Source: a virus
Lineage: Duplodnaviria > Caudoviricetes
Strand: one strand, 5' to 3'
Virus record (IMG/VR): IMGVR_UViG_3300018494_000083
DNA: 64,000 bases
Program-made: the position numbers and the translations under genes
Notes under the pieces: generated by a model
Databases searched by the model: none
What the model was told of the DNA's origin: nothing
What the model saw: the letters and a program-made list of their open reading frames with translations, nothing else
Shown: positions 1 to 52,135 of the stretch, piece by piece
How positions within the stretch are numbered: position 1 is the first letter of the stretch
Layout: every line of letters starts with the position of its first letter

Positions 1-179
1 TCCTAGGTATACAAATATAGATACCAAATGGGGTGTTTGTTATTACTCCACAAGCGAAAATTCAAAGTGGAATAAAAACGGTATATCTCTTTATATCTGA
101 TTTTGGATTTTATAGTATAGGTAATCCGAGCACACAAAAGTATGTTTTTCAGCATTTATATACAGGAGTCAGATCATAA
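1..179 (+). repeat. TP-cassette array A (end of an array cut by the window edge): 1 partial + 1 complete cassette
   Basis: Partial unit 2-44 reads PRYTNIDTKWGVCY (GGTGTTTGT). An out-of-frame junction leads to ACTCC at 45, which reads TPQAKIQSGIKTVYLFISDFGFYSIGNPSTQKYVFQHLYTGVRS-stop. Confidence 0.75.
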
Positions 180-14398: not shown

Positions 14399-17300
14399 TT
14401 AAGTATCTTTATCTTCGAGGATGTCTTTAATCTTCTTTTCTGCACCAATCATGACTGTATTAAGAGCCAAGGAAATAGATGCAGACTGAGTCATACGTGC
14501 CATCAAACCAGAGATCGAAAGGAACGCATCAATCTTGATACTCGGGTCAGAAACCAGATACGGCTCCAAACCAAGAGGAATTGTAGATTGGTTAATACCC
14601 TTCAGAGCGGTTGAGAAGGACAGCTTATCACCAACAGAGAACGAGTCAACGGTCTGTACAAAGAACTTGATCAGAACTTGGAACTCATCCATCTTAGTGC
14701 CAGCAATCTTACCATTTACAGGCACAGTAACATCGGCAGTATCATTCAAGGTAGTCATATCCTTAAGATTGATACCTGCTTCTTCGAAGTTCTTAAGTCT
14801 TTCCTTGATCTTTCTCTCATAGTTAGTAATAACTTTTCTGAGCGAAGGACTGAGCTCGGACTTAGGACATGTGTAATAGATCTTGATATCGACAACCTTA
14901 CCGTTCCACTTGGACTTAACATGATTCTTGGAAGCTTCGATAAGTTTATCTTTCTCTTCCTGATTCATCTTAGAAAGCATCTGGTTAAGGTAGTCATCTT
15001 CGTAGGATTCATCAAATACAATGAACGGATCATTTACATTGACAGAATCACCTACAGATTTGATTGCATAGATATTGGAATTCTTACCAAGACGAACTTC
15101 TTTAACTTCATCTACATAAGAAGCCATTCTCTGTGCAAACTTTTCAGTTACAAGGGTAGAGTCCTCGTAAACGAACGAACCGTGAATAAGTGCAACTCTA
15201 GCCAAAGGACCAGACTTGTAGATAACTTCACCAGCAAGTTCATCATACTCGAAGAACTGACTGTTTGCTGCAAGCACATCGCCTTCAGAGAACTTCTGAC
15301 CAACTGTCTTGTAAATAGGATCGAGTCTATTGTTGATATAGAAACCTGATCCGGTATTCAGAGACTGTCTATCGGTCAAGTCAATTACTTCGGATTTACC
15401 AGACTCATAACGAACGATCATATATCCAAGGTCAGGGTTGAACTCATGTACATAACCGTTCTCTTTTGCTTTGAATGCAAATTTATCGGAAATGATCTTA
15501 GGAAGAACCTTATCTGCACCATACCCAAATAACGGAACATCAGAGTCCATAACGGCGAGAGTATGTCTAGACTGAGTCGATGCCATGCCAACACGCTGAG
15601 GGTCATCATGAGTTGCTGTCATAGGAATAAGCATTTCTGCACCGGACAGAAGGTTCGTCTGATCGAGTTTTTCTTGGTCTTCTCCATAGCCTACATCGAG
15701 GTAACCTCTAAGCGAAGTTACATTCGGGTTGAGAGCCATGATACGAGAAATACCTACGTTTGCAGATACAGGAGACGACTGTGCAAGAATGCCCAACATA
15801 GAGTCATTATATGCACGCTTGTCGATCTTAAATCCTTTATCAACGTTACATCCACCAGGACCCTTATAAGAAGTTGCTCTCATACGATCGATTTCAAAAA
15901 TCGGGTTAAGATTAGAATACTCTTCCATAACCTGAGAATCGAACATATTGTTTATCAACTCGTTAGTCTTGATAGAGAACTTGTTGGGATTCTTATTATC
16001 TGCTGTAGATCTGTAGGATTCATATGCTTTCGAAAGCACCTTATATAGGTGAGCATTGAGCATCTCATTACTTCTGATACGATAGTTCTTGAGGTCACCA
16101 TCTTTATCAAAGGTATTATTTTCAAGCAGAGTATTAGCATAGATTACAAGATCAATAAAGTCAGTAGGAAGGTTATAATCTTCCAATACTTCTTTAGTAA
16201 TCGAATCTATAAACAACTGCTGGAAGTTCTCAAACGCAGTGCCGATATTTCTACGACCAAACATCTTCATGAAAATATCGTAATAGATATCTTTAGAACA
16301 GAAGTCGAGGAAGTTGTAATCCTCAGTAGGAATATCATAGAAACCGTTCAAAAGCAGAGAGTTGCTATACGGATAGAGATCATAGCTAAGGAAACCATCA
16401 GCAAACTGAATAGTTCCACGCTTAGTAGAATCTTCCTTAGTTCTAGTCTCGGAGAATTTATGGTTACATTTAAGCTTAACGAGCAAAGGCTCAAGACCGA
16501 TCAAGAAAGACAGAAGAAGTACAACAGGTACATCTTTTGCCATGATCTTAGCTCTCGTATAAATCGACTTCTTAGTACCGGAGATAGATTTGAACTGACT
16601 TCTGATCTTTTCGTCATCCGAATGTTTAATAATAAAGTCGATAGGTGTCATGTTGGAATCTTCTCCATCATAGATAACCTCTCCACTCTTAACATCGAGA
16701 CAAACAAGAGACTTCTTACCAGTCTTATCAGTTTCAATAGCAAAAGGAAGTTCATCTTTCTTATCATAAGTAAGATCTTCACTTTCGCAAATAGAGCGAA
16801 TGTCATCTTGACGAAGGTAGATGACTGTATCAGCATTCTTCAAGGTAATAGTTGTGAACTTCTTACTAAGCTCATCATATTCCATCGAAGTCATATAGGG
16901 AACGTTATCCATTAGGTTGTTACCCTTCTCGAATTCAATAGAAGAATTCTCAAGAGAACCAAGAAGTTTCATGAATTTCGAAACCTTATTGGACACATTC
17001 TTACCGAAACGAGTCATAAAGATTTTATTGTACAAAGAGGAGATCTGAACCTGGTCAGGCGCAACCTTTGTAACAGGAAGAGGAATAATCTGGTTGATAA
17101 AGATCTTGTCGGATCCATTGAGGAACATGAACTTATCATTCATGAACTTAGGTACATCGAATGAGAAGCTATGTCTTCTACCATACTCATCCTCATAAAC
17201 ACAGGAATACCTGAAGATCTTGTCGATTGCAGTAGAGATATCTTCCTTATTGATAGAAATCAGATAAAGAGGTCTATCTTTCTCAGCAAAGGAAGTAAGG

Positions 17301-18745
17301 ATATTCATCATATCATACTCAAGAAGCTTCTCATTGTAACCCTTTTCAAAGTTACTAAACTTGATATGCTTCATTCGAGGATTGATAACAGAAGTTTTAA
17401 CTTCAAAGTCATCAATCTGTTTAGCTTTTGCTTCCTTAGCAAGATCCTGTACAGATTTCTCTCCAACCTTGAGATCTTTCATTTCTTCCTTGATCTTCTC
17501 AATACGAGCAAGTCTAGGAGCAGACTGAGTCGGAGCAATAGTTTTCTTAAGCTCCTCTTTTACAGTCTTGTTTACTTTCTCTTCAAGATCAGAGATATCG
17601 ATATCTTTAATTGTAGGTTGAGGTGTATTATCAACCTCTACCTTATTTTCATCAACCTCAACATCCTTCGGCTTAGTAATTCTCGTAGTCGAAAGAGTCT
17701 TCTTTTTGTCAGCAGTCTTCTGAGAAGAAGCCATATCATCAGATGTGGGTTTCTCTGTTGCTTTAACTGCAGGTTGAGGAGGTGTCATTTTTGTATTTGC
17801 TTTAGCCTTGCTAACTTCCGAGTTGACGGTATTAACAATTCTATCTTTAGCAAGATCGTCTATAGGAAGACGATTGACATCTCTAATCACATTCTTGTTA
17901 TAGTTTGTGATTGTGTCACTGTTCTTCTGATCAAGGGTTTGATCATTCTCAGTTTCATTATCTGTGAGATTTTCGTCATCGACAACAGAAAGATCGATAT
18001 TACCCTTGGAAGATCTTAATCTCTTAAAGAGCTTGTTCATAAGAACCGGTGTATCTTCATTCATATCATTAGCATTCATGTAGAATAACTCATTATGGTT
18101 CATGAAAATGAAAGTCCAGTTCTTGAACACTTTTCGAATAGTACTCGGATCATCGTGAATCTTACGAACAACAACGATACCGAAGTTATAGAGTAAATCC
18201 CTCTTGAACCAAAGAGAACTCATTGCAGGGTTATCGATGTATTGATCGAGAGGAATGTAGATATATTTCTTATGGTTAGGAAAGTCTCTTCCAATATCCT
18301 TGATTTTCTTAGCAACCTGATCGAACTTGATCTCGGACTGTCTGACTGCAGACTTTCTATCGATTCGCTCGTTTGTATTAAGAAGGTCATTAAACTGACC
18401 GATCTCATAGATTACATTATAATCACGAACCATATCAGGTTTCGGCTTTAACTGAACATCAGGATGCAGTCTACCAAAGTGCTGAGAGTAGACTTCTCTC
18501 TGTTTGTTGATCTCGCGAACTTGCTGACCTTCAAACTTTTCAGAGAGCTTCCTTTCAATATAATAGCGTGTATATCTTCTGAACTGAAGATAAGGGTTGT
18601 TAAAGAACTCTGCCGTTCCATCAAGACTGGTAGACAACACAGTTACCAGTGTACCTTTCATAGGCGTCTTCATATCATACGGCATTGTGAATTTATCTCT
18701 AACCCTATACACTCTATTAGGAACTAATCTATTAAAATTAAGCAT
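14399..18745 (-). CDS. Phage multisubunit RNA polymerase beta subunit (probably virion RNAP, phiKZ gp178-like)
   Basis: 1448 aa. Beta motifs: HDDPQRVGMASTQSRH, YEDSTLV, VGDKLSFSTALKG, IDAFLSISGLMARMT. Preceded by the late-type motif. Confidence 0.9.
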   Translation of the reverse strand: MLNFNRLVPNRVYRVRDKFTMPYDMKTPMKGTLVTVLSTSLDGTAEFFNNPYLQFRRYTRYYIERKLSEKFEGQQVREINKQREVYSQHFGRLHPDVQLKPKPDMVRDYNVIYEIGQFNDLLNTNERIDRKSAVRQSEIKFDQVAKKIKDIGRDFPNHKKYIYIPLDQYIDNPAMSSLWFKRDLLYNFGIVVVRKIHDDPSTIRKVFKNWTFIFMNHNELFYMNANDMNEDTPVLMNKLFKRLRSSKGNIDLSVVDDENLTDNETENDQTLDQKNSDTITNYNKNVIRDVNRLPIDDLAKDRIVNTVNSEVSKAKANTKMTPPQPAVKATEKPTSDDMASSQKTADKKKTLSTTRITKPKDVEVDENKVEVDNTPQPTIKDIDISDLEEKVNKTVKEELKKTIAPTQSAPRLARIEKIKEEMKDLKVGEKSVQDLAKEAKAKQIDDFEVKTSVINPRMKHIKFSNFEKGYNEKLLEYDMMNILTSFAEKDRPLYLISINKEDISTAIDKIFRYSCVYEDEYGRRHSFSFDVPKFMNDKFMFLNGSDKIFINQIIPLPVTKVAPDQVQISSLYNKIFMTRFGKNVSNKVSKFMKLLGSLENSSIEFEKGNNLMDNVPYMTSMEYDELSKKFTTITLKNADTVIYLRQDDIRSICESEDLTYDKKDELPFAIETDKTGKKSLVCLDVKSGEVIYDGEDSNMTPIDFIIKHSDDEKIRSQFKSISGTKKSIYTRAKIMAKDVPVVLLLSFLIGLEPLLVKLKCNHKFSETRTKEDSTKRGTIQFADGFLSYDLYPYSNSLLLNGFYDIPTEDYNFLDFCSKDIYYDIFMKMFGRRNIGTAFENFQQLFIDSITKEVLEDYNLPTDFIDLVIYANTLLENNTFDKDGDLKNYRIRSNEMLNAHLYKVLSKAYESYRSTADNKNPNKFSIKTNELINNMFDSQVMEEYSNLNPIFEIDRMRATSYKGPGGCNVDKGFKIDKRAYNDSMLGILAQSSPVSANVGISRIMALNPNVTSLRGYLDVGYGEDQEKLDQTNLLSGAEMLIPMTATHDDPQRVGMASTQSRHTLAVMDSDVPLFGYGADKVLPKIISDKFAFKAKENGYVHEFNPDLGYMIVRYESGKSEVIDLTDRQSLNTGSGFYINNRLDPIYKTVGQKFSEGDVLAANSQFFEYDELAGEVIYKSGPLARVALIHGSFVYEDSTLVTEKFAQRMASYVDEVKEVRLGKNSNIYAIKSVGDSVNVNDPFIVFDESYEDDYLNQMLSKMNQEEKDKLIEASKNHVKSKWNGKVVDIKIYYTCPKSELSPSLRKVITNYERKIKERLKNFEEAGINLKDMTTLNDTADVTVPVNGKIAGTKMDEFQVLIKFFVQTVDSFSVGDKLSFSTALKGINQSTIPLGLEPYLVSDPSIKIDAFLSISGLMARMTQSASISLALNTVMIGAEKKIKDILEDKDT

Positions 18746-18815: not shown

Positions 18816-19522
18816 ACTCCGAAGCCATTTATTCATATCTGGCAAGGAGAAGATGTATCACTGATTCATATGTCAGTCGTGTATGATAATGGAAATGGAT
18901 CTGTAAGATATATCGCAGGATTTGATGGTGTTCAACTCCAAGTTATATATACGACAAATATGCAGATAGTCGCTGGTCAAAAATATTATCAGGTGGAGAT
19001 AATACATTTGAGTCTGGGTCAGCGGATAGAATTTATGGTCTACTCCAAGATTTTATTATAATGAAAATCTAGTAGATGATAGAATGATATTAGTTAATGG
19101 AACTGTGGATATGACTATATATCCTTATAAAATGTATGAGTTACTCCAGGTCCATGGATGCTACCTTGGGGTCTTGATCAGATTTATGGGATTAATCAGT
19201 ATTCAAATCTCGGTGTTTCTTTTCCGACTAATCCAAATAATAAAGATGGTACTCCTGCTGGATATAAGATGCCAAACAATACCGATAGTCTATACACTCA
19301 GAGAATTATGCAAATGAGTGATAAAGGATCAGGGACAACACAATACATTCCAAAAAATAAGTATGGTATATTACTCCATCAAACAATAAACGATATAAGT
19401 ATGAAGAAAATAGATATTTTACATTTAATGAAACTGGTGATGTTGAAACCTGGTATGATATTCCTAATGCCGAGTATGAATTGTATACATTTTTATACTT
19501 CAACAGACAATATATCAAATAG
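18816..19522 (+). repeat. TP-cassette array B: 6 cassettes
   Basis: ACTCC at 18816, 18935, 19042, 19143, 19251, 19373 (spacing 119, 107, 101, 108, 122). Each unit is stop-free in its Thr-Pro frame. Confidence 0.85.
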
Positions 19523-19588
19523 AATCGCTGACCAACTCGTACTCAATCAGCACCTCCTATTTGCCTCTTTTTTCGTCATTTTTCAAAT

Positions 19589-19731
19589 GGGGAAAAGGAA
19601 GGAGAGAAGGGGGAAAGGGGGTTGAGAGAAAGAAAAAGGGGAAACATACCCCATGGGAACCGAGGGAGACCGAGGAGAGAAATCCCCCTCCGGAGGGAAG
19701 AATAGAAAGAAAAAAAATAAAGAGAAGAGAG
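19589..19731 (+). other. Purine-rich, G-tract non-coding segment
   Basis: Strongly A/G-biased on the + strand, with G-runs at 19589-92, 19609-13, 19617-21 and 19638-41. Confidence 0.6.
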
Positions 19732-39542: not shown

Positions 39543-39609
39543 TGGTTATTCCTCCATATAATATGATTATCCTAATGTTTTTGACTGAATAATTCGGTAC
39601 ATAATGAGT

Positions 39610-40066
39610 CACCAATTTTATCATATGGAGCATATATTTGATCTGTGCTATTTCCATATTCTCGTATTTTAAACTGTCGTATCTCTATATTATCTTGTGT
39701 TAAAATTAATGATAATGGAGTCACCATCTGGCATCTTTATAGTACCGCCATCTCGAGCCGTTCCAGTCTCATTCACTCTGGAACCTTCATCTTTATATAT
39801 TGTGCCATATTGTTCTTGATACCAATATGTGTGTCCTGGAGTACAAACACCAATGTAAGCATTTGACTGGTATGACCACAAATCAGCATATCCGAGCTGT
39901 CCCTGTTTATAGTGAATATTCCATATTTGACTTGCAATACGTTCCGGTATATTTGTCTCGATAACAGGAGTCCAACACCAATAGAATAACCATACACTAA
40001 CGATGTCATCAGGTTTCCAGTAAGATGTAGATCCATGTTTACATCATCTCGTATTATGTCTGGAGT
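39610..40066 (-). repeat. TP-cassette array C: 4 cassettes
   Basis: Minus-strand ACTCC starting at 40066, 39971, 39842 and 39721 (units of 95, 129, 121 and 112 bp). Each is stop-free and ends IGV/IGVC/DG/IG. Confidence 0.85.
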
Positions 40067-45417: not shown

Positions 45418-46662
45418 ATGATCATGGCTGTAAATACTGTGCTTAAACCTGAAAGAGAGCTGACCGCTGAAGAGGTTGCTGAAGTTCTTGCTCTTGAGAG
45501 TAAAGATATTTGTGCAACTCTTTTCAAAAAGTGGTTTGCGAGAAAACCTGATGGTGGAGAGCCTCGTTTCTATGTAAATAACTACTTCCGTCTTCCCACA
45601 AGTAGATTCAATACTAAGAGAGAAGTATGGACAACGATAGGTATTTACATCGCTAACCTCCATCTTATTCAACCTAACTTTGCCAGTCTCTTGGGTTATG
45701 TAAATAAACCCTTTACTGGTAAAGAAATTGGTCGAATCGAATCTATTCTGTCAGACGCTCTTTATCATGATAAGATCAGTACAGATGCTATGGCTGATTA
45801 CTATAATCGACTCCAGTGGCTTGGTGGTGATAGAACGATCTCTTTGATTTCACCTTCTATTACCACTGCCCTGTTGAGGGAGCCTACGGAAATCATTGAA
45901 AGAAAGAAGCAACTCTTTGAGCAATACAAAGATGAACTTCGTGATGATAACCCGAATAACGCTATTGTTGCTGCTCGTATCGAGAAAGAGCTTGTTCAAA
46001 TGGCAGAAGAATTCCTTCACACGCAGGATGGTTGTGAGAACTTTGATTCTAAGTCAAAGGTCAATGTTGGCAACCATTATAAGAATATGAATATCATGAA
46101 GGGACCCATCAAAAACAGTTACAGTGGCGGTTATCGTGTAAACCAATCAAACTACAACAGTGGTATTACTAAAGAAGAATACTCTTCGTTTGCAGATTCC
46201 TCTGTTCTTGGTGCATACATGAGAGCCGTTAATACTGAGAAGGGTGGACACATGGCTAAGCAGGCTAACCAGGGTCTTAGTGGTATTGCTGCTGCTCCTA
46301 AAGGAAGCGACTGTAAGACTACTAAGTATCTGAGAGTCTTCCTGCATCCGAAGTCTAAAGAAGAATACCTTAACAGATATATCGTAGTTGACAAAGAACT
46401 TATCGAGCTTACACAAGAGAACTGGTCTACTTATGAGAATACATGGGTAGATATGAGATCTGCTATGTATTGCCTCGAGAAAGAACCTTGCTTCTGCAAT
46501 ATCTGTATCGGTAACCAGCCTTATCTGCTCGGACTTGAGAACTTCGGTCTGGCAGTGAGCCGCATCCCTAATAGACTTCTTGGTATCTCCATGAAAGCCT
46601 TCCACGACGCAACCGTCAAATCGATGGCTATCCCGCTTGATGATATCTTTGAATTCACTTGA
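45418..46662 (+). CDS. RNA polymerase beta' C-terminal fragment (probably virion RNAP)
   Basis: Bridge helix AVNTEKGGHMAKQ, SDCKT, Zn site RSAMYC...CNICIG, trigger loop ISMKAFHD; co-transcribed with structural genes. Confidence 0.85.
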   Translation: MIMAVNTVLKPERELTAEEVAEVLALESKDICATLFKKWFARKPDGGEPRFYVNNYFRLPTSRFNTKREVWTTIGIYIANLHLIQPNFASLLGYVNKPFTGKEIGRIESILSDALYHDKISTDAMADYYNRLQWLGGDRTISLISPSITTALLREPTEIIERKKQLFEQYKDELRDDNPNNAIVAARIEKELVQMAEEFLHTQDGCENFDSKSKVNVGNHYKNMNIMKGPIKNSYSGGYRVNQSNYNSGITKEEYSSFADSSVLGAYMRAVNTEKGGHMAKQANQGLSGIAAAPKGSDCKTTKYLRVFLHPKSKEEYLNRYIVVDKELIELTQENWSTYENTWVDMRSAMYCLEKEPCFCNICIGNQPYLLGLENFGLAVSRIPNRLLGISMKAFHDATVKSMAIPLDDIFEFT

Positions 46663-46673
46663 TAAAAAAAATA

Positions 46674-46710
46674 ATCCCTCATAGGTCATAAGCCTATGAG
46701 GGGTTTGTTT
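46674..46710 (+). terminator. Intrinsic terminator immediately upstream of array D
   Basis: CCCTCATAGG-tcataag-CCTATGAGGG followed by TTTGTTT. Confidence 0.75.
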
Positions 46711-46713
46711 GTC

Positions 46714-48562
46714 ACTCCGGCAACCAAAATACTATCAAGTTCATATTGGTCTCCAAATATTTTTAACGCTATAAATGGATCAGTAACGATTCATGATCCA
46801 AGAACTAAAAATGGTGTATCAACTCCACAATATGATCTTAACTGGATAATGTATTCCTATATCGAGATGTCATATGTTACTGATATTGGATCAAAGAAGT
46901 CCTGTTATCCAACTCAACAAGTCGGTGACCATACTCAATACCAGAATAAGCACTACCCATACTATCACCTGGCATTATTCTCCAAAACTGATCTTGAAAT
47001 CGAACTTCAGGTTCTCTTATAGGAGTAATTCACCATGAATATACCAGTCTACACGACAAGCGTAAGTTCCCAATGGATATCCTTCTTCTGTAATTCCTTC
47101 GATCATATTTTCATCTACTACATTTAAAGTTCTGTGTCGCTCTATTGGAGTTATCACCAATCGGTGTACCAGGTGTATACCACCAAGAATTGGCATCCCC
47201 AATTTCAGTTGGTGTAAACCATCTATTTTTTTCATATTGATGGCGTGGATTATTAGATGGAGTAAGTCACCATTTAATGTATCTGGTATATGCACCCAAG
47301 ATTTAGGGATACCGTCTCTATCAGTATCAAAATATCTATGCTGTTCATATGTGGGTCCAATATTACTTGATGGAGTTTATTGTTCCACCATGAATATGGA
47401 AAGCCGCATATGCGTTGCTCCATGTTTTACCATCTTTATCTATAACTGGTACATTATTATGAGTTACTAAACCTCCTTGATACCAATATGGAATATTATC
47501 CGGAGTAATCACCCGGTTCAGCCCAATTTATTCCAATTCCATAAGAACCATACCCGAAAGCCTGTATTATGGTTTCATAATATGCAGTTCCATCTTTTGT
47601 AAACTCATCTGGAGTAACACCTATAATCCATTCTACGCCACTGCCAGACCGAAGTTCTCCTGTTCGATGAATATAATTTCCATAGTTTGCTTTAGATGTA
47701 ACTAACATATCTGGAGTAATGCACCATTTATATCAGCAGCGCTAAATCCGGAAAGTATTACCTCGCCATCCTTTTCAATAGCAGTGTGTAAAACATGTCC
47801 ATTGTTTGCGCCGTCCCAATAATGATGGAATGGAAATGGAGTCCATACTCTGTAGCAGAATAAAAAGCGACGTTTGTAGATCCATAAGGACCTATATAGT
47901 GAAAAGTTCGTGGACTTTCCCATTCTTGATTTAGATTTATTTTAATTGGTGGAGTATATCATACGATTTACCAGCTATTTCTCCATCCATATATGTACAA
48001 TACCCAGCGTCAGACATTTTATACCAACGCCCTGGAGAATATTCATCGTGATAATGATCAGGAGTAGATTTCTCATACTTTATACTAACATTAGCATCTT
48101 CCGTTGTACTAGTCCCATAAATATTTATTCTATAACCATGGTTGGTTAACCAAAGGCTTTGCCAGTATGGTGATGATGGAGTCGCAAACACCAGGTTTAA
48201 AGTATTGGTTATATTCACAGTCAAAGACATTCCATCCAATTGCACCTTTTCCATCTGGGTATATCGAACCATAGTAATTCATAGATTTATTTCCATCTAT
48301 GAATGTAGGAGTGGTACCATACGCAAATGCATTAAGATATGCTTGAGAACTATAGCCTTGATGTTGAATATCTCGATAGAGGTATGTGGTTGATCCGTCT
48401 ACATCATGTGGAAAATAAGTTCCATTAGGAGTAGCAAACACCTGGTCCATTCCAGCCAGAATTCCAGCCATATTGAATACCACCATGTTTATTAGAAAAG
48501 ACAAATGTATTTACACTAATTACATTCTCACCAAACTCATTTTGATAGTAATGATAAGGAGT
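46714..48562. repeat. TP-cassette array D: 2 plus-strand + 14 minus-strand cassettes meeting tail-to-tail
   Basis: Plus-strand ACTCC at 46714 and 46822. Minus-strand ACTCC starting at 48562, 48432, 48312, 48182, 48065, 47955, 47842, 47717, 47615, 47506, 47376, 47263, 47151 and 47026. All are stop-free in the TP frame. Confidence 0.9.
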
Positions 48563-48611
48563 AGGTATTTATATTTGACTTAACTTTAAATTAATATGAA
48601 AGGAGAATATT

Positions 48612-49302: not shown

Positions 49303-49390
49303 TGTCCCCATTTTTGATTAGGGCTATACATTATAGTAGTGATATTAGATGATAGTCAAACAATATCAATTCATATATAGGAGGTTTACA

Positions 49391-50709
49391 ATGGCAAAGA
49401 AACTACCTAAAAACCCACCTCGAATTAATGCCTTTAAAGCTGATATTCGAGAGACGCCGTTTAAAGAACGGCAGCGTGTTGTCAAGTCGGTGACACTTGA
49501 CATCATTAACTTCGATGAGGAATATAAGAAAGACCTCAAAGAAGGAAAAGGCTTCTTGATCACAAACGAAGAAGACTTTAATGAGAAGACGGGTACTCGA
49601 ACCATGGATGGTTTGTATAGCCCGATCTATGGTATCTCTTCTTTCTCCGATAAGATCACTGATGATTACTATCGTTGTGATTGTGGAGAAACAACCGGTT
49701 CACTCTCTGAGGGTGATATCTGCCCGAGTTGTGGAACTGAGGTACAATTCATCGATACAGGATTGGATGTATTCGGTTACATTCCTCTTGGTAATTTTAT
49801 TATCATCAACCCTGCGATGTATACTCTGTTGGCTAAACTGATCGGCGAGAAAGATCTTCAGCTCATCATCAAGTTTAATAATAAGTACAATGTAAGCGGA
49901 AAGAATGTCTCCACTAAGACAAAGTCTAGCCCTTATCACGGTATCGGTATTATTAAATTCAAGGAAGACTTTGATGAGATTGTCTCATACTATCGAGACA
50001 AGAGAAAGCAACCTGAGACTTATGACATCATCATGAAGTTCAAGGACTCTGCATTCGCTCATCATATCCCTGTATATAGCAGCCTTCTCCGTCCTCTTGT
50101 TAAGGACGATTCTAAAATTTCTATGGTAGATGACAATAAGTCGTATTCTATCATTCTTGCAAATGCCAATTCCATTCGTTCTTCTGAAATCCCTGGTGTC
50201 GATAAGACAATCATCTTCGAGAACTCACTCTTCGAAATCCAGTCTGAGTTTAATAAGATTTACAAAGATATCATCGATCTCAGTCTTTCCACTAAGAAGG
50301 GTGTTATTCGTGGACAGGTAACTTGTAACCGTGTCGACTATTCTGGTCGTTGTGTTATCGTTCCTGCGACTGGTCATTCGGTAGACGAAGTATCAATGCC
50401 CTATGCAATGGGTGTTGAGATGATGAGACCTCTTATCATCCGTGCTCTTTCGAAGACAAAAGACATCTCGGTGAGAGAAGCTAACTCTGAAGTAGATGCA
50501 GCTCTCAGAAGATTTAATAAAGGCATTTGGTTTATTATGAATCATATAATCATGAAATCCCATAATCCTCCCCAAGTCATGGTACAGCGTTCTCCTTCGT
50601 TGTTACAAGAGTCTATGCGTTTGATGAGAATCAAATGTATTAAACCTGACTTCCATGATTTGACTTTGGATGTTCCTACTGGCATTCTTGACTATATGGG
50701 TGCAGACTT
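49391..50709 (+). CDS. RNA polymerase beta' N-terminal subunit, exon 1 (probably non-virion RNAP)
   Basis: Zn finger CDCG...CPSCG, RVDYSGRCVIVP, QRSPSL; ends GADF. GGAGG RBS before ATG 49391; early motif at 49325. Confidence 0.88.
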
Positions 50710-52135
50710 TAACTAAACCCGTCGGAGTCTGTGAAGTGGTGACACTTCTGGTAAAACGCTACTGAATTGCGGGGACCTGACTTAATCTATATTTACTAAA
50801 CCGAATGGTGACATATCGGCGGCTTGAATTAACTACTCAAGGAATAGTAAAAAGAATATAGATGTCACAATCCGCAGCGAAGATTCCCAAGTGGAATAAC
50901 GTTCAACGGTCATCGAAAGTATAGTGTACTAGGGATAGTTACATGAATAAACGAGTAGAGTAGGGCTCACAATATGGTGTGAGTGGGCGAGACACCCTTA
51001 AATCGAAGTGGTAGCAGTCTCATTCATCTAGAACAGATGCTTGAGATATAAGATATGATCTAGTTACAAATTAAATTACTTAAATGCAAATAATTTTATG
51101 GGAGGTATTCACATATGAAAGGTGAAACGATAAGTGGAAGATATCATTATCATTATGAACGCCGTCCCTGTGTTTACAAAATCGAAAATAGTGTAAATGG
51201 TAAAGTATATATTGGATCAACAAAATACCCTGATCAGAGGGTATTGCAACATAAACGTTTAGGTGAAACATGGAATCATCGAAAGCAACAAGATGATAGA
51301 TTTCTTCCATCCACAAGCTTATATCAAGAAATATATGAGTATGGATGGGATAAGTTTACATTTGAAATTGTGGAAGATGTCCCAATTATCTCAACTATGC
51401 CAGAGTATGGATATAATGATATTCTTACAGATTGCGAGGACCGATGGTTAACATTTTACATCGATCAGCTCGGAGTAAGTAATGTCTATAATAAGACACT
51501 CAGAGCTTATAGAACAAAGGAGCTATCGGATGAGCATAGACGAGCAATATCTGAGGCAGCTATGGGTCGCAGACAATCAAATGATACCAAGAGAAATAGG
51601 GGAACTCGAGTAATCGCAATCAATGTGTATACCAATGAAGCCATCATTGCAGATACTGGTAAGCAACTTGGTGATTATTTTATTTCCTCTGGCAGAAATA
51701 ATGGACAGGCATCTGGGAAAGATATCATTAAGAATAAATTAAAACGCCATCAATTATTATTCGGTGAGTGGTTTTTATATTATTGCGATCCCGAAAAAAG
51801 AGAGCGTGAGTATGGTAAGATTGATAATAAAGAATCCTATACAAAAGGAATTTTATATTATGAAATTCTTAAATACTTAATGGATACTCCAGAAGAGGAA
51901 TGGTCCACAAAATATAATATACATAATACATCATATGATACACTATTATCCGAATTAGAAACCAGAGATGGATGTTATATAACACATTCAAGAAATAGTA
52001 GATGTCAATCTAATAATTACAACCCAACAAGCAGCATGCTTGAAAAATACGGTAAAACAATATCTAAAGCATTTAAGTGATTTATACTAAAAGGTCACCA
52101 TGAGGGATACATTTCACTTATGGTGATACTTTTGG
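50710..52135 (+). mobile_element. Group I intron splitting the DFDGD catalytic motif
   Basis: P1 pairing of exon CAGACTT with GAGTCTG. Core elements P AATTGCGGGGA (50765), Q AATCCGCAGC (50869), R TTCAACGGTCAT (50902), S AAGATATGATCT (51050). Ends in G; splicing restores GAC TTT GAT GGG GAT. Confidence 0.88.
51115..52080 (+). CDS. Intron-encoded GIY-YIG homing endonuclease
   Basis: CVYKIENSVNGKVYIGST...R...H, FTFEIVE, E...YN, then a NUMOD-like LSDEHRRAISEA. GGAGG RBS. Confidence 0.88.
   Translation: MKGETISGRYHYHYERRPCVYKIENSVNGKVYIGSTKYPDQRVLQHKRLGETWNHRKQQDDRFLPSTSLYQEIYEYGWDKFTFEIVEDVPIISTMPEYGYNDILTDCEDRWLTFYIDQLGVSNVYNKTLRAYRTKELSDEHRRAISEAAMGRRQSNDTKRNRGTRVIAINVYTNEAIIADTGKQLGDYFISSGRNNGQASGKDIIKNKLKRHQLLFGEWFLYYCDPEKREREYGKIDNKESYTKGILYYEILKYLMDTPEEEWSTKYNIHNTSYDTLLSELETRDGCYITHSRNSRCQSNNYNPTSSMLEKYGKTISKAFK

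Follow-up and report, generated by a model that had tools for sequence, protein, structure and literature searches.

Silent, start-less cassette arrays in a jumbo phage appear to store alternative tips for one giant fibre gene

What does a virus keep in 1.85 kilobases (kb) of DNA that hold no credible open reading frame (ORF)? The question arises at positions 46714–48562 of a 64,000-nucleotide (nt) stretch of the Caudoviricetes record IMGVR_UViG_3300018494_000083 (IMG/VR), analysed whole and called the window here, where such a region lies between a gene for an RNA polymerase (RNAP) beta fragment and a divergent gene of 218 amino acids (aa). The original prediction saw in it 16 separate coding cassettes. 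Because the payloads of three units (U10, U9 and U14) match segments of a live gene, we conclude on the sequence evidence that the units are silent, start-less copies of alternative versions of that one gene's variable segment. We are highly confident that they belong to a library of silent payloads, with exchange between arrays and acceptor, and the phage apparently changes its receptor tip by swapping entire stored segments.

All 16 peptides of the original prediction were reproduced exactly, 14 on the minus strand (U1–U14, numbered from 48562 downward) and 2 on the plus strand (P1 and P2). Minus-strand units begin with ACTCC at 48562, 48432, 48312, 48182, 48065, 47955, 47842, 47717, 47615, 47506, 47376, 47263, 47151 and 47026, and plus-strand units at 46714 and 46822; distances from one ACTCC to the next are 102–130 nt, the range originally given. 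ACTCC occurs 8.7 times per kb in the array versus 0.72 per kb elsewhere in the window. Every unit (16/16) is open in the ACT-CCN frame, as had been claimed, whereas reading the other two frames leaves 1 and 0 units open; across 20,000 composition-preserving shuffles, a mean of 0.85 and a maximum of 6 of the 16 units were open. Most joints shift the frame because unit lengths are not multiples of three (lengths modulo 3 are mixed and the frame changes at 10 of 13 minus-strand joints), and the short ORFs called here by the ORF track, such as 48130–48504 and 47937–48272, are chimaeras of adjacent units. No start codon was found in any of the 16 units, nor any upstream ORF for U1. Pairwise comparison found the units mutually unrelated at the DNA level. 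The two sub-arrays converge, meeting tail to tail at 46924–46930, where their GGT ends overlap in the palindrome GGTGACC.

The live gene was reached by walking public contigs that encode identical proteins. In several related genomes the acceptor reads as a constant stretch, ...KKFLINDSPNYTYWWLR, followed by TP..., the variable segment and then G-VCFGLSTKQ...; its nucleotide flanks are ...TGGTGGCTTCGC before the payload and GTTTGCTTCGGG after it, and the payload boundaries in the protein are YWWLR/TP and G/VCFG. A search with the acceptor piece yielded the target protein, 1873–1886 aa long, in which LRR_5 repeats and DUF6273 precede a C-terminal domain of about 190 aa. The DUF6273 match (6e-10) covers residues 1542–1671 of protein P0007, and the variable segment occupies residues 1653–1684, at the C-terminal end of this domain, which we take to be C-type-lectin-like. 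Published variable regions of diversity-generating retroelements (DGRs) are likewise located at the C terminus of DUF6273 (PMC11792537, PMC10743442), and by this analogy the segment is most likely the ligand-binding surface of a receptor-binding protein. Within one 90%-identity cluster, 13 quite different segments of 31–43 aa stand between WWLR and VCFG, giving a variable region of 93–129 bp; counting other clusters and two truncated acceptors, there are 17 distinct acceptor segments.

Payloads from the array recur at this site. The U10 payload is identical at 120 of 121 nt to the acceptor segment of contig L036, with the match beginning at the A of ACTCC, ending at GGTG and flanked by unrelated DNA; the segment is also present in P0008 (full-length), P0009, P0010 and P0018. 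U9 shares 86% aa identity with the segment of P0004 and U14 80% with that of P0012, both full-length proteins. The three payloads thus lie between the same boundaries in the protein or second acceptor of related genomes, which bears out the claim of separate cassettes rather than one gene. P0008 and P0016 agree fully in the 97 aa preceding and the 187 aa following the segment and differ solely in it, the one carrying U10 and the other TPTQIYKG.... This second segment has a silent twin in another array, identical at 110 of 111 nt from ACTCC to GGT on a single contig, L041, which represents the window's own strain (it comes from the same sample as L004, whose array equals that of the window). 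Both variable segments of the window's strain therefore have twins in its own arrays. Overall, a recognisable twin exists for 10 of the 17 distinct acceptor segments in the collection of 221 distinct cassettes, which covers only part of the arrays of these genomes. As in silent-cassette systems, there is one expression site and there are many promoter-less partial copies whose sequence recurs in it. A sigma-70 promoter scan gave fewer matches than shuffled sequence and carries no information in a phage that has RNA polymerases of its own. The alignments show that payloads have been copied faithfully, as whole units, between arrays and two acceptor sites, with borders exactly at ACTCC and GGT(G).

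The array and its borders are listed below by window position and strand; L016 is a contig of a related phage, and X9 and X16 are relatives from other studies.

46673..46705, both strands: bidirectional terminator hairpin that ends both the minus-strand sub-array and the RNAP beta-fragment gene of the plus strand, 9 nt ahead of the first plus-strand ACTCC
46714..46821, plus: cassette P1 (TPATKIL...NGVS), 108 nt; different DNA in L016, X9 and X16
46822..46926, plus: cassette P2 (TPQYDLNW...QQVG); its tail abuts that of U14, GGT-G-ACC; L016 has a weak relative, TPQYDLKY..., on its minus strand
46928..47026, minus: cassette U14 (TPIREPEVRFQDQFWRIMPGDSMGSAYSGIEYG); 80% aa identity to the P0012 variable segment
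47027..47151, minus: cassette U13; retained in X9 at about 86% identity
47152..47263, minus: cassette U12; holds the only single-nucleotide polymorphism of the array; 59% aa identical to the last unit of the array at 18816–19522
47264..47376, minus: cassette U11; peptide reproduced, compared with X9 and X16
47377..47506, minus: cassette U10; payload 47506–47386, tail GAACAATAA; twin of the L036 acceptor segment
47507..47615, minus: cassette U9; 86% aa identity to the P0004 variable segment
47616..47717, minus: cassette U8; X16 has 185 other letters instead, joint 47620/47722
47718..47842, minus: cassette U7; peptide reproduced, compared with relatives
47843..47955, minus: cassette U6; X9 has about 130 extra letters at the U5/U6 border, joint 47929/47950
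47956..48065, minus: cassette U5; ends in TCGTATGAT, a piece of the constant TCGTATGGT
48066..48182, minus: cassette U4; peptide reproduced, compared with relatives
48183..48312, minus: cassette U3; tail GGTGTTTGCG
48313..48432, minus: cassette U2; X9 and X16 carry 320 other letters in place of U2 and U3, joint 48182/48409
48433..48562, minus: cassette U1; tail GGTGTTTGCT; the only unit orthologous in all relatives
48563..48611, no strand: short spacer between U1 and the divergent 218-aa gene

Could the array instead be a single gene, decayed or misassembled? Two other samples, assembled independently, show 1 and 2 base differences from the window across 8.6 kb. One of these differences falls inside the array and is the sole one there among the three samples: T>C at 47230, which is A>G on the cassette sense strand and turns Lys into Glu in U12. 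Six further runs contain 98–99% of the sampled words of the stretch. Because independent assemblies agree, the joints are neither sequencing errors nor an assembly artefact. Decay of a tandem-repeat protein gene, or disruption of a single ORF by assembly errors, would account for units that are alike in length and ends, but the unit sequences are unrelated, the frame breaks only at borders, and the same segments occur singly in a functional protein; we give this reading essentially no weight. The result that the original prediction had named as fatal to it, one continuous repeat-protein ORF with erroneous indels at the joints, is excluded by the identical independent assemblies and the mutual dissimilarity of the units. 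We also rejected programmed frameshifting or bypassing along one long ORF, which would need 10 shifts of three kinds to join unrelated units that occur singly in a real gene. Several metagenome contigs of the phage end inside cassette arrays (L006 at position 1; L005 at its end), and these breaks could reflect strain mixtures that differ in cassette content.

Related genomes revealed how the array turns over. The flanks of L016 are 85–88% identical to those of the window, and homology stops at 46718 and 48420, just past the first plus-strand ACTCC and just past U1; L016 carries 7 + 2 other units where the window has 14 + 2. U1 matches the first L016 unit at 88% of nucleotides and 77% of amino acids and is also covered in X9 and X16. 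The latter two (X16 is from goat gut) keep U4–U7 and U9–U13 at 83–91% identity, with flanking genes at 96%, and differ from the window in the DNA at the terminator-proximal end of the array. The same unit-wise turnover was seen in a second array across eight strains. Whole units are replaced exactly at unit borders. The proposed polarity of gain and loss held only in part: U1 is kept in all relatives and the terminator-proximal end differs in all, while inner units are swapped piecemeal, so turnover is not strictly polar. In L016, convergent cassettes also stand tail to tail (at about 880–905), with 10 unrelated bases between them.

The presence of both orientations (14 minus, 2 plus), and of a plus-strand ATG at 46696 just before the first plus-strand unit, could be taken to indicate a shufflon, with a site-specific recombinase inverting segments that lie between opposed ACTCC sites and so fusing them to an expressed gene. 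Yet that ATG sits inside the terminator hairpin, for which reason the 'MRGLFV' ORF starting there was dropped; the shared sequence is only 5 bp long, where shufflon sites have 19 bp or more, and mostly in direct order; samples contain no isomers of the array, and relatives show replacement rather than inversion. Moreover, the neighbours, which are the only genes checked for a recombinase, are RNAP fragments and a GIY-YIG endonuclease, with none among them, and the real site of expression, a gene, lies beyond the window. We therefore regard inversion as extremely improbable.

The joints carry a further record of how units arrived. Each unit opens with a payload that spans ACTCC (Thr-Pro) to GGT (Gly). 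Behind it stand 0–11 nt of the 3' flank of the acceptor (GTTTGCTTCG...) and, up to the next ACTCC, unrelated bases, 0–6 nt in most units and rarely more. Tails in L016 are longer, comprising GGTGTTTGCTT plus 3–13 nt. The 5' border is sharp: only ACTCC is common to cassette and acceptor, and 158 distinct inner joints show no carry-over of the target's upstream CGC, the base before ACTCC being T in 56%. The 3' border fades gradually; most units end in NAT-GGT, and cassette ends retain graded pieces of GTATGGTGTTTGCTTCG. A G before TAT, at a third codon position, is enriched whatever the amino acid, and because this G is kept irrespective of the codon, the 3' end is conserved at the nucleotide level. 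Cassette and acceptor flanks thus share 5 nt on one side and 3–13 nt on the other, and the transfers seen are of whole units, not mosaics. Immediately behind terminator T-runs is where arrays tend to begin, as do a solo cassette and the truncated acceptor. Most arrays lie in sense to local transcription, a rule that the two convergent sub-arrays here obey as well. Outside arrays, ACTCC/GGAGT is depleted about 2-fold (40 seen versus 75 expected under a third-order model or 97 under a first-order model) and ranks 17th of 1024 pentamers, behind words with GGCC, CCSGG and ACGCG; this fits a site that may be costly to have elsewhere. As for those other words, GGCC is wholly absent outside arrays (the eight GGCC-containing pentamers count 0 versus about 20–42 expected each) and CCSGG and ACGCG are almost absent in the window outside arrays, which looks like restriction-site avoidance.

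The expression site itself is not single in every genome. Some carry a second acceptor, a 5'-truncated copy of the target's end that lies behind a terminator beside an unrelated gene, about 110 kb from the full gene. Considering N-terminal body or stub, U10 or TPTQIYKG, and C-terminal domain or short tail, 7 of the 8 possible combinations are present among public proteins, which points to inversion or exchange between the two acceptor copies via flanks of 51 nt and 75 nt. Consistent with this, there are two genome isomers (L033/L034/L036 and L040/L041; proteins P0002, P0008–P0010, P0016, P0018 and P0021) in which the full target and the distant truncated copy have swapped ends, which implies an inversion of about 110 kb, or a reciprocal exchange, through the same flanks. 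In the window's strain, the fibre gene body (P0009, 1720 aa) lacks the C-terminal domain and the stub copy adjoins a reverse transcriptase (RT) module. Exchange between acceptor copies is a second layer of variation and shows that homologous recombination acts wherever homology suffices. A sigma-70-like promoter, TTGACA-17-TATAAAT, and a strong terminator hairpin about 150 nt beyond it lie at L022 14680–14890 (also in L024, L025 and, at about 450–760, L041), and the pair may be a small RNA gene. The truncated acceptor is inserted directly behind the T-run of this hairpin; L022 is entirely without the insert.

What lies next to the expression site bears on the route of transfer. The target is followed downstream by two genes of unknown function, then by a gene of 164 aa, a spacer of 425 nt and an RT of 367 aa. 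The RT (L038 and L041) matches PF00078/RVT_1 at 7e-19, carries FGAPFSQ (GxxxSQ) and YVDD in the alignment, and has the reverse transcriptase 8ub7 as its second-best match among solved structures. The SQ motif (GxxxSQ) marks RTs of the DGR type. Between a 21-mer and the RT gene, the spacer contains a full-length match to the Rfam RT-2 RNA (90.8 bits, the gathering score being 40). RT-2 belongs to a set of motifs that neighbour RT genes; in the phage BPP-1, the related RT-10 is situated between template repeat and brt (PMC5737381). The 21-mer, TCGTATGGTGTTTGCTTCGGG (L041 5277–5297), is located 44 nt upstream of the RT-2 match and equals the 3' flank of the target's variable segment, its counterpart after that segment being (TAT)GGTGTTTGCTTCGGG; module and target thereby share a 3' flank resembling the IMH/IMH* pair (initiation of mutagenic homing) of DGRs. 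No template repeat was found: the target and the 5.4 kb containing the module share only 19–21 nt, and the 124 nt before the 21-mer, considered as a hidden template, contain in-frame stops and fit no cassette, with at most 38% agreement at non-A positions against a mean of 24%. Across three strains with unrelated variable segments, the whole spacer shows zero substitutions and one 1-nt indel, while genes flanking the arrays in such strains differ by 3–8% at synonymous sites. Judged by these comparisons, the module is a set of DGR parts complete except for the template repeat, and its RNA is strongly constrained. A solo cassette (TPTYEIVSDVMIADRWKRIYIDG...) is present in the window's strain at L041 4461–4570, between a 671-aa gene and the 164-aa gene of the module; because the same gap is 108 nt shorter in L038, it represents a recent single insertion next to the module.

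Are the stored copies in use, or are the arrays a graveyard? Pooled over 311 pairs, syntenic cassettes differ at a proportion of 0.27 of synonymous sites (pS) and 0.085 of nonsynonymous sites (pN), giving a pN/pS of 0.31, whereas adjacent genes have a pS of 0.03–0.08; the pairs are non-independent and were chosen by similarity, and the figures are rough. Stops within the first 30 codons occur in just 8 of the first 201 distinct units. Because pN/pS is far below 1, the protein frame of the silent units appears to be under selection, which would be hard to explain unless the units are used. These values are not expected of dead copies and speak against a reading in which arrays are a by-product archive of ectopic insertions at ACTCC that never serve as donors, new tips coming for instance from phage recombination. 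Such an archive would suit the tails with variable lengths of acceptor flank plus unrelated bases, as from imprecise capture, the position of arrays and truncated acceptor behind terminator T-runs or in other non-coding gaps, and the fact that the best template-switch homology (21 nt) is with the target mRNA, not with cassettes. On the other hand, both segments of the window's strain have twins in its own arrays, and more than 70 units are maintained in a virus genome of about 250 kb, where useless DNA is costly. We consider a pure archive decidedly unlikely.

Taken as a whole, a silent tip library with transfer by the DGR-derived module is the explanation we favour, as a moderately probable one. 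Both the mechanism of transfer (RT template switching or DNA recombination) and its direction are matters that we infer, and the RT-mediated route by the adjoining module is put forward tentatively. In BPP-1, cDNA starts at the end of the template repeat (PMC6182149). Here, synthesis of complementary DNA (cDNA) would be primed in the 21-mer of the module RNA; the nascent cDNA would switch by microhomology to an array transcript, or to target mRNA, bearing the same flank, and would copy the payload without adenine mutagenesis. Its product would be the complement of TCGTATGGTGTTTGC... joined to the payload and ending in GGAGT-3', and this 3' end would pair with ACTCC at the integration site. Integration in the acceptor would be a tip swap, installing one of more than 100 stored tips in the receptor-binding gene, while integration at an array ACTCC would store the tip in use. 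During storage, the 5' end of the cDNA would be without homology, and the model would in this way produce the ragged tails. The sense orientation of most arrays and of both convergent sub-arrays fits a possible RNA intermediate. A DGR would on this account have turned from a point-mutating machine into a read-write cassette system, by faithful retro-exchange from templates in trans, a proposal that is somewhat more tentative again.

Several observations weigh against this explanation. U9 and U14 are matched at the protein level only, and in diverged strains. Adenine-specific change, the hallmark of DGR-RT activity, is absent: cassette and acceptor differ at 1 of 111 positions (A in the cassette, T in the acceptor) and at 1 of 121 (C versus T, with 41 adenines unchanged); among syntenic cassettes, 374 variable columns contain A and 363 contain T; and the X9 and X16 substitution spectra are strand-symmetric with no adenine excess. 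Given such faithful copying, the RT may have no role. The processive synthesis of cDNA in BPP-1 requires template and spacer on one RNA (PMC6182149), and 5 bases of 5' homology would be remarkably short for any integration route known. The 164-aa protein in the Avd position has no Pfam, NCBIfam, PHROG or PDB sequence match, and its single-sequence structure model is all-helical at low confidence (predicted local distance difference test score, 46). The RNA intermediate and the cDNA are hypothetical, and transfer could run from array to gene, from gene to array, or both. Finally, the array is identical in all samples of one campaign, so exchange would be too infrequent to blur assemblies.

The same library could be served by transfer at the DNA level, through microhomology gene conversion during replication or repair, or through a nuclease acting at ACTCC, with the RT module as a decayed DGR. 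Faithful copying without adenine changes, a module without a template repeat and the homologous recombination evident at the locus (the 7 of 8 acceptor combinations) would all be expected, and ACTCC depletion is also compatible with a nuclease site. Against it, flanks of 5 nt and 3–13 nt are too short for RecA-type conversion, the substitution-free 425-nt spacer RNA and an intact RT ORF with catalytic motifs argue for a working module, and ragged tails with unrelated bases resemble template switching or end joining rather than conversion. We consider DNA-level transfer unlikely.

The phage that carries this system is a jumbo phage with split multisubunit RNAP genes, matched by PHROG profiles at 14399–18745, 45418–46662 and 49349–50716 of the window. 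Its nearest cultured relatives are jumbo phages of the AR9/PBS1 type, with an RNAP fragment at 34% aa identity, and the runs that contain it are animal faecal and gut metagenomes. Searching the stretch with blastn against GenBank phages gave no match, IMG/VR scans for relatives gave none (eight matches were due to chance), and the metagenome pattern WWLR + ACTCC + gap + GGTGTTTGC had no match. The sole match of a second metagenome pattern, L016, was rejected as a target gene, being the homologous array of a related phage. The array is one of at least eight in this phage, with more than 70 units verified in at least seven arrays; three more of them reach into the window:

18816..19522, plus: sister array of 6 cassettes with ACTCC units
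39606..40066, minus: sister array of 4 cassettes, starting directly after a terminator, at ...TTTTTGTTTGCTT-ACTCC
45..179, plus: last cassette of a 13-unit array that crosses the window start (L001 7818–9280)

Directly past the 6-unit array, positions 19555–19700 form a strongly purine-rich G/A tract, GGGGAAAAGGAAGGAGAGAAGGGGGAAAGGGGG...GGAGGGAAG. The GIY-YIG homing endonuclease gene lies among the split RNAP genes at 51115–52080, and L041 19423–20051, next to a DnaB-like helicase gene, holds two group I introns (Rfam RF00028, 81.5 and 55.2 bits).

How does the system relate to those already described? As in DGRs of the BPP-1 type, the target is a probable phage receptor-binding protein with a domain of the C-type-lectin type, rewritten at the domain's end; the RT is of the GxxxSQ kind, a small gene stands in the Avd position, and RT-2 lies between the shared 3' flank and the RT gene, as RT-10 does in BPP-1. 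Unlike in a DGR, there is no template repeat, the RNA sharing only 19–21 nt with the target; a whole segment of 31 to 43 aa is replaced by one of many unrelated stored ones, no adenine-specific changes occur, and the donors or archives sit in arrays scattered over the genome. With Borrelia vlsE/vls and Neisseria pilE/pilS it shares a single expressed gene whose variable part is replaced by stored sequence, and many promoter-less, start-less, head-to-tail partial copies, some mutually out of frame. It differs from these in being carried by a virus, in moving entire units of mutually unrelated sequence instead of mosaic patches, in its ragged tails, in flanks of 5 nt and 3–13 nt compared with their 17-bp repeats or conserved blocks, and in the RT module beside the expression site. 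Mu Gin, P1 Cin, p15B Min and R64 Rci likewise store alternative receptor-binding ends in the genome and exchange them for host range; here, in contrast, there are no inverted sites, invertase or array isomers, and an internal segment is exchanged rather than the C terminus. The system resembles silent-cassette variation in its working, is made of DGR parts and fails defining tests of both. Literature searches, of incomplete coverage, found no description of a cassette library of this kind or of a DGR without a template repeat.

Known means by which phages retarget are point hypermutation (DGRs), inversion switches and recombination with one another. If our reading is true, an in-genome library of whole binding tips for one giant fibre protein would be a further strategy, resembling the antigenic variation of Borrelia and Neisseria but carried by a virus and linked to a reverse transcriptase. 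Should the RT be what drives the exchange, DGR-type enzymes would gain a further known activity, the faithful and trans-templated replacement of segments with guides of 5 nt and about 10 nt, which would be of interest for retroelement biology and for programmable in vivo segment writing. The arrays would also explain ORF-poor 'junk' stretches and spurious small ORFs in jumbo-phage annotation, and the cassette present in the acceptor would offer a direct sequence read-out of host-range switching in animal-gut metagenomes. For the virus itself, the gain would be a heritable and expandable library of host-recognition modules.

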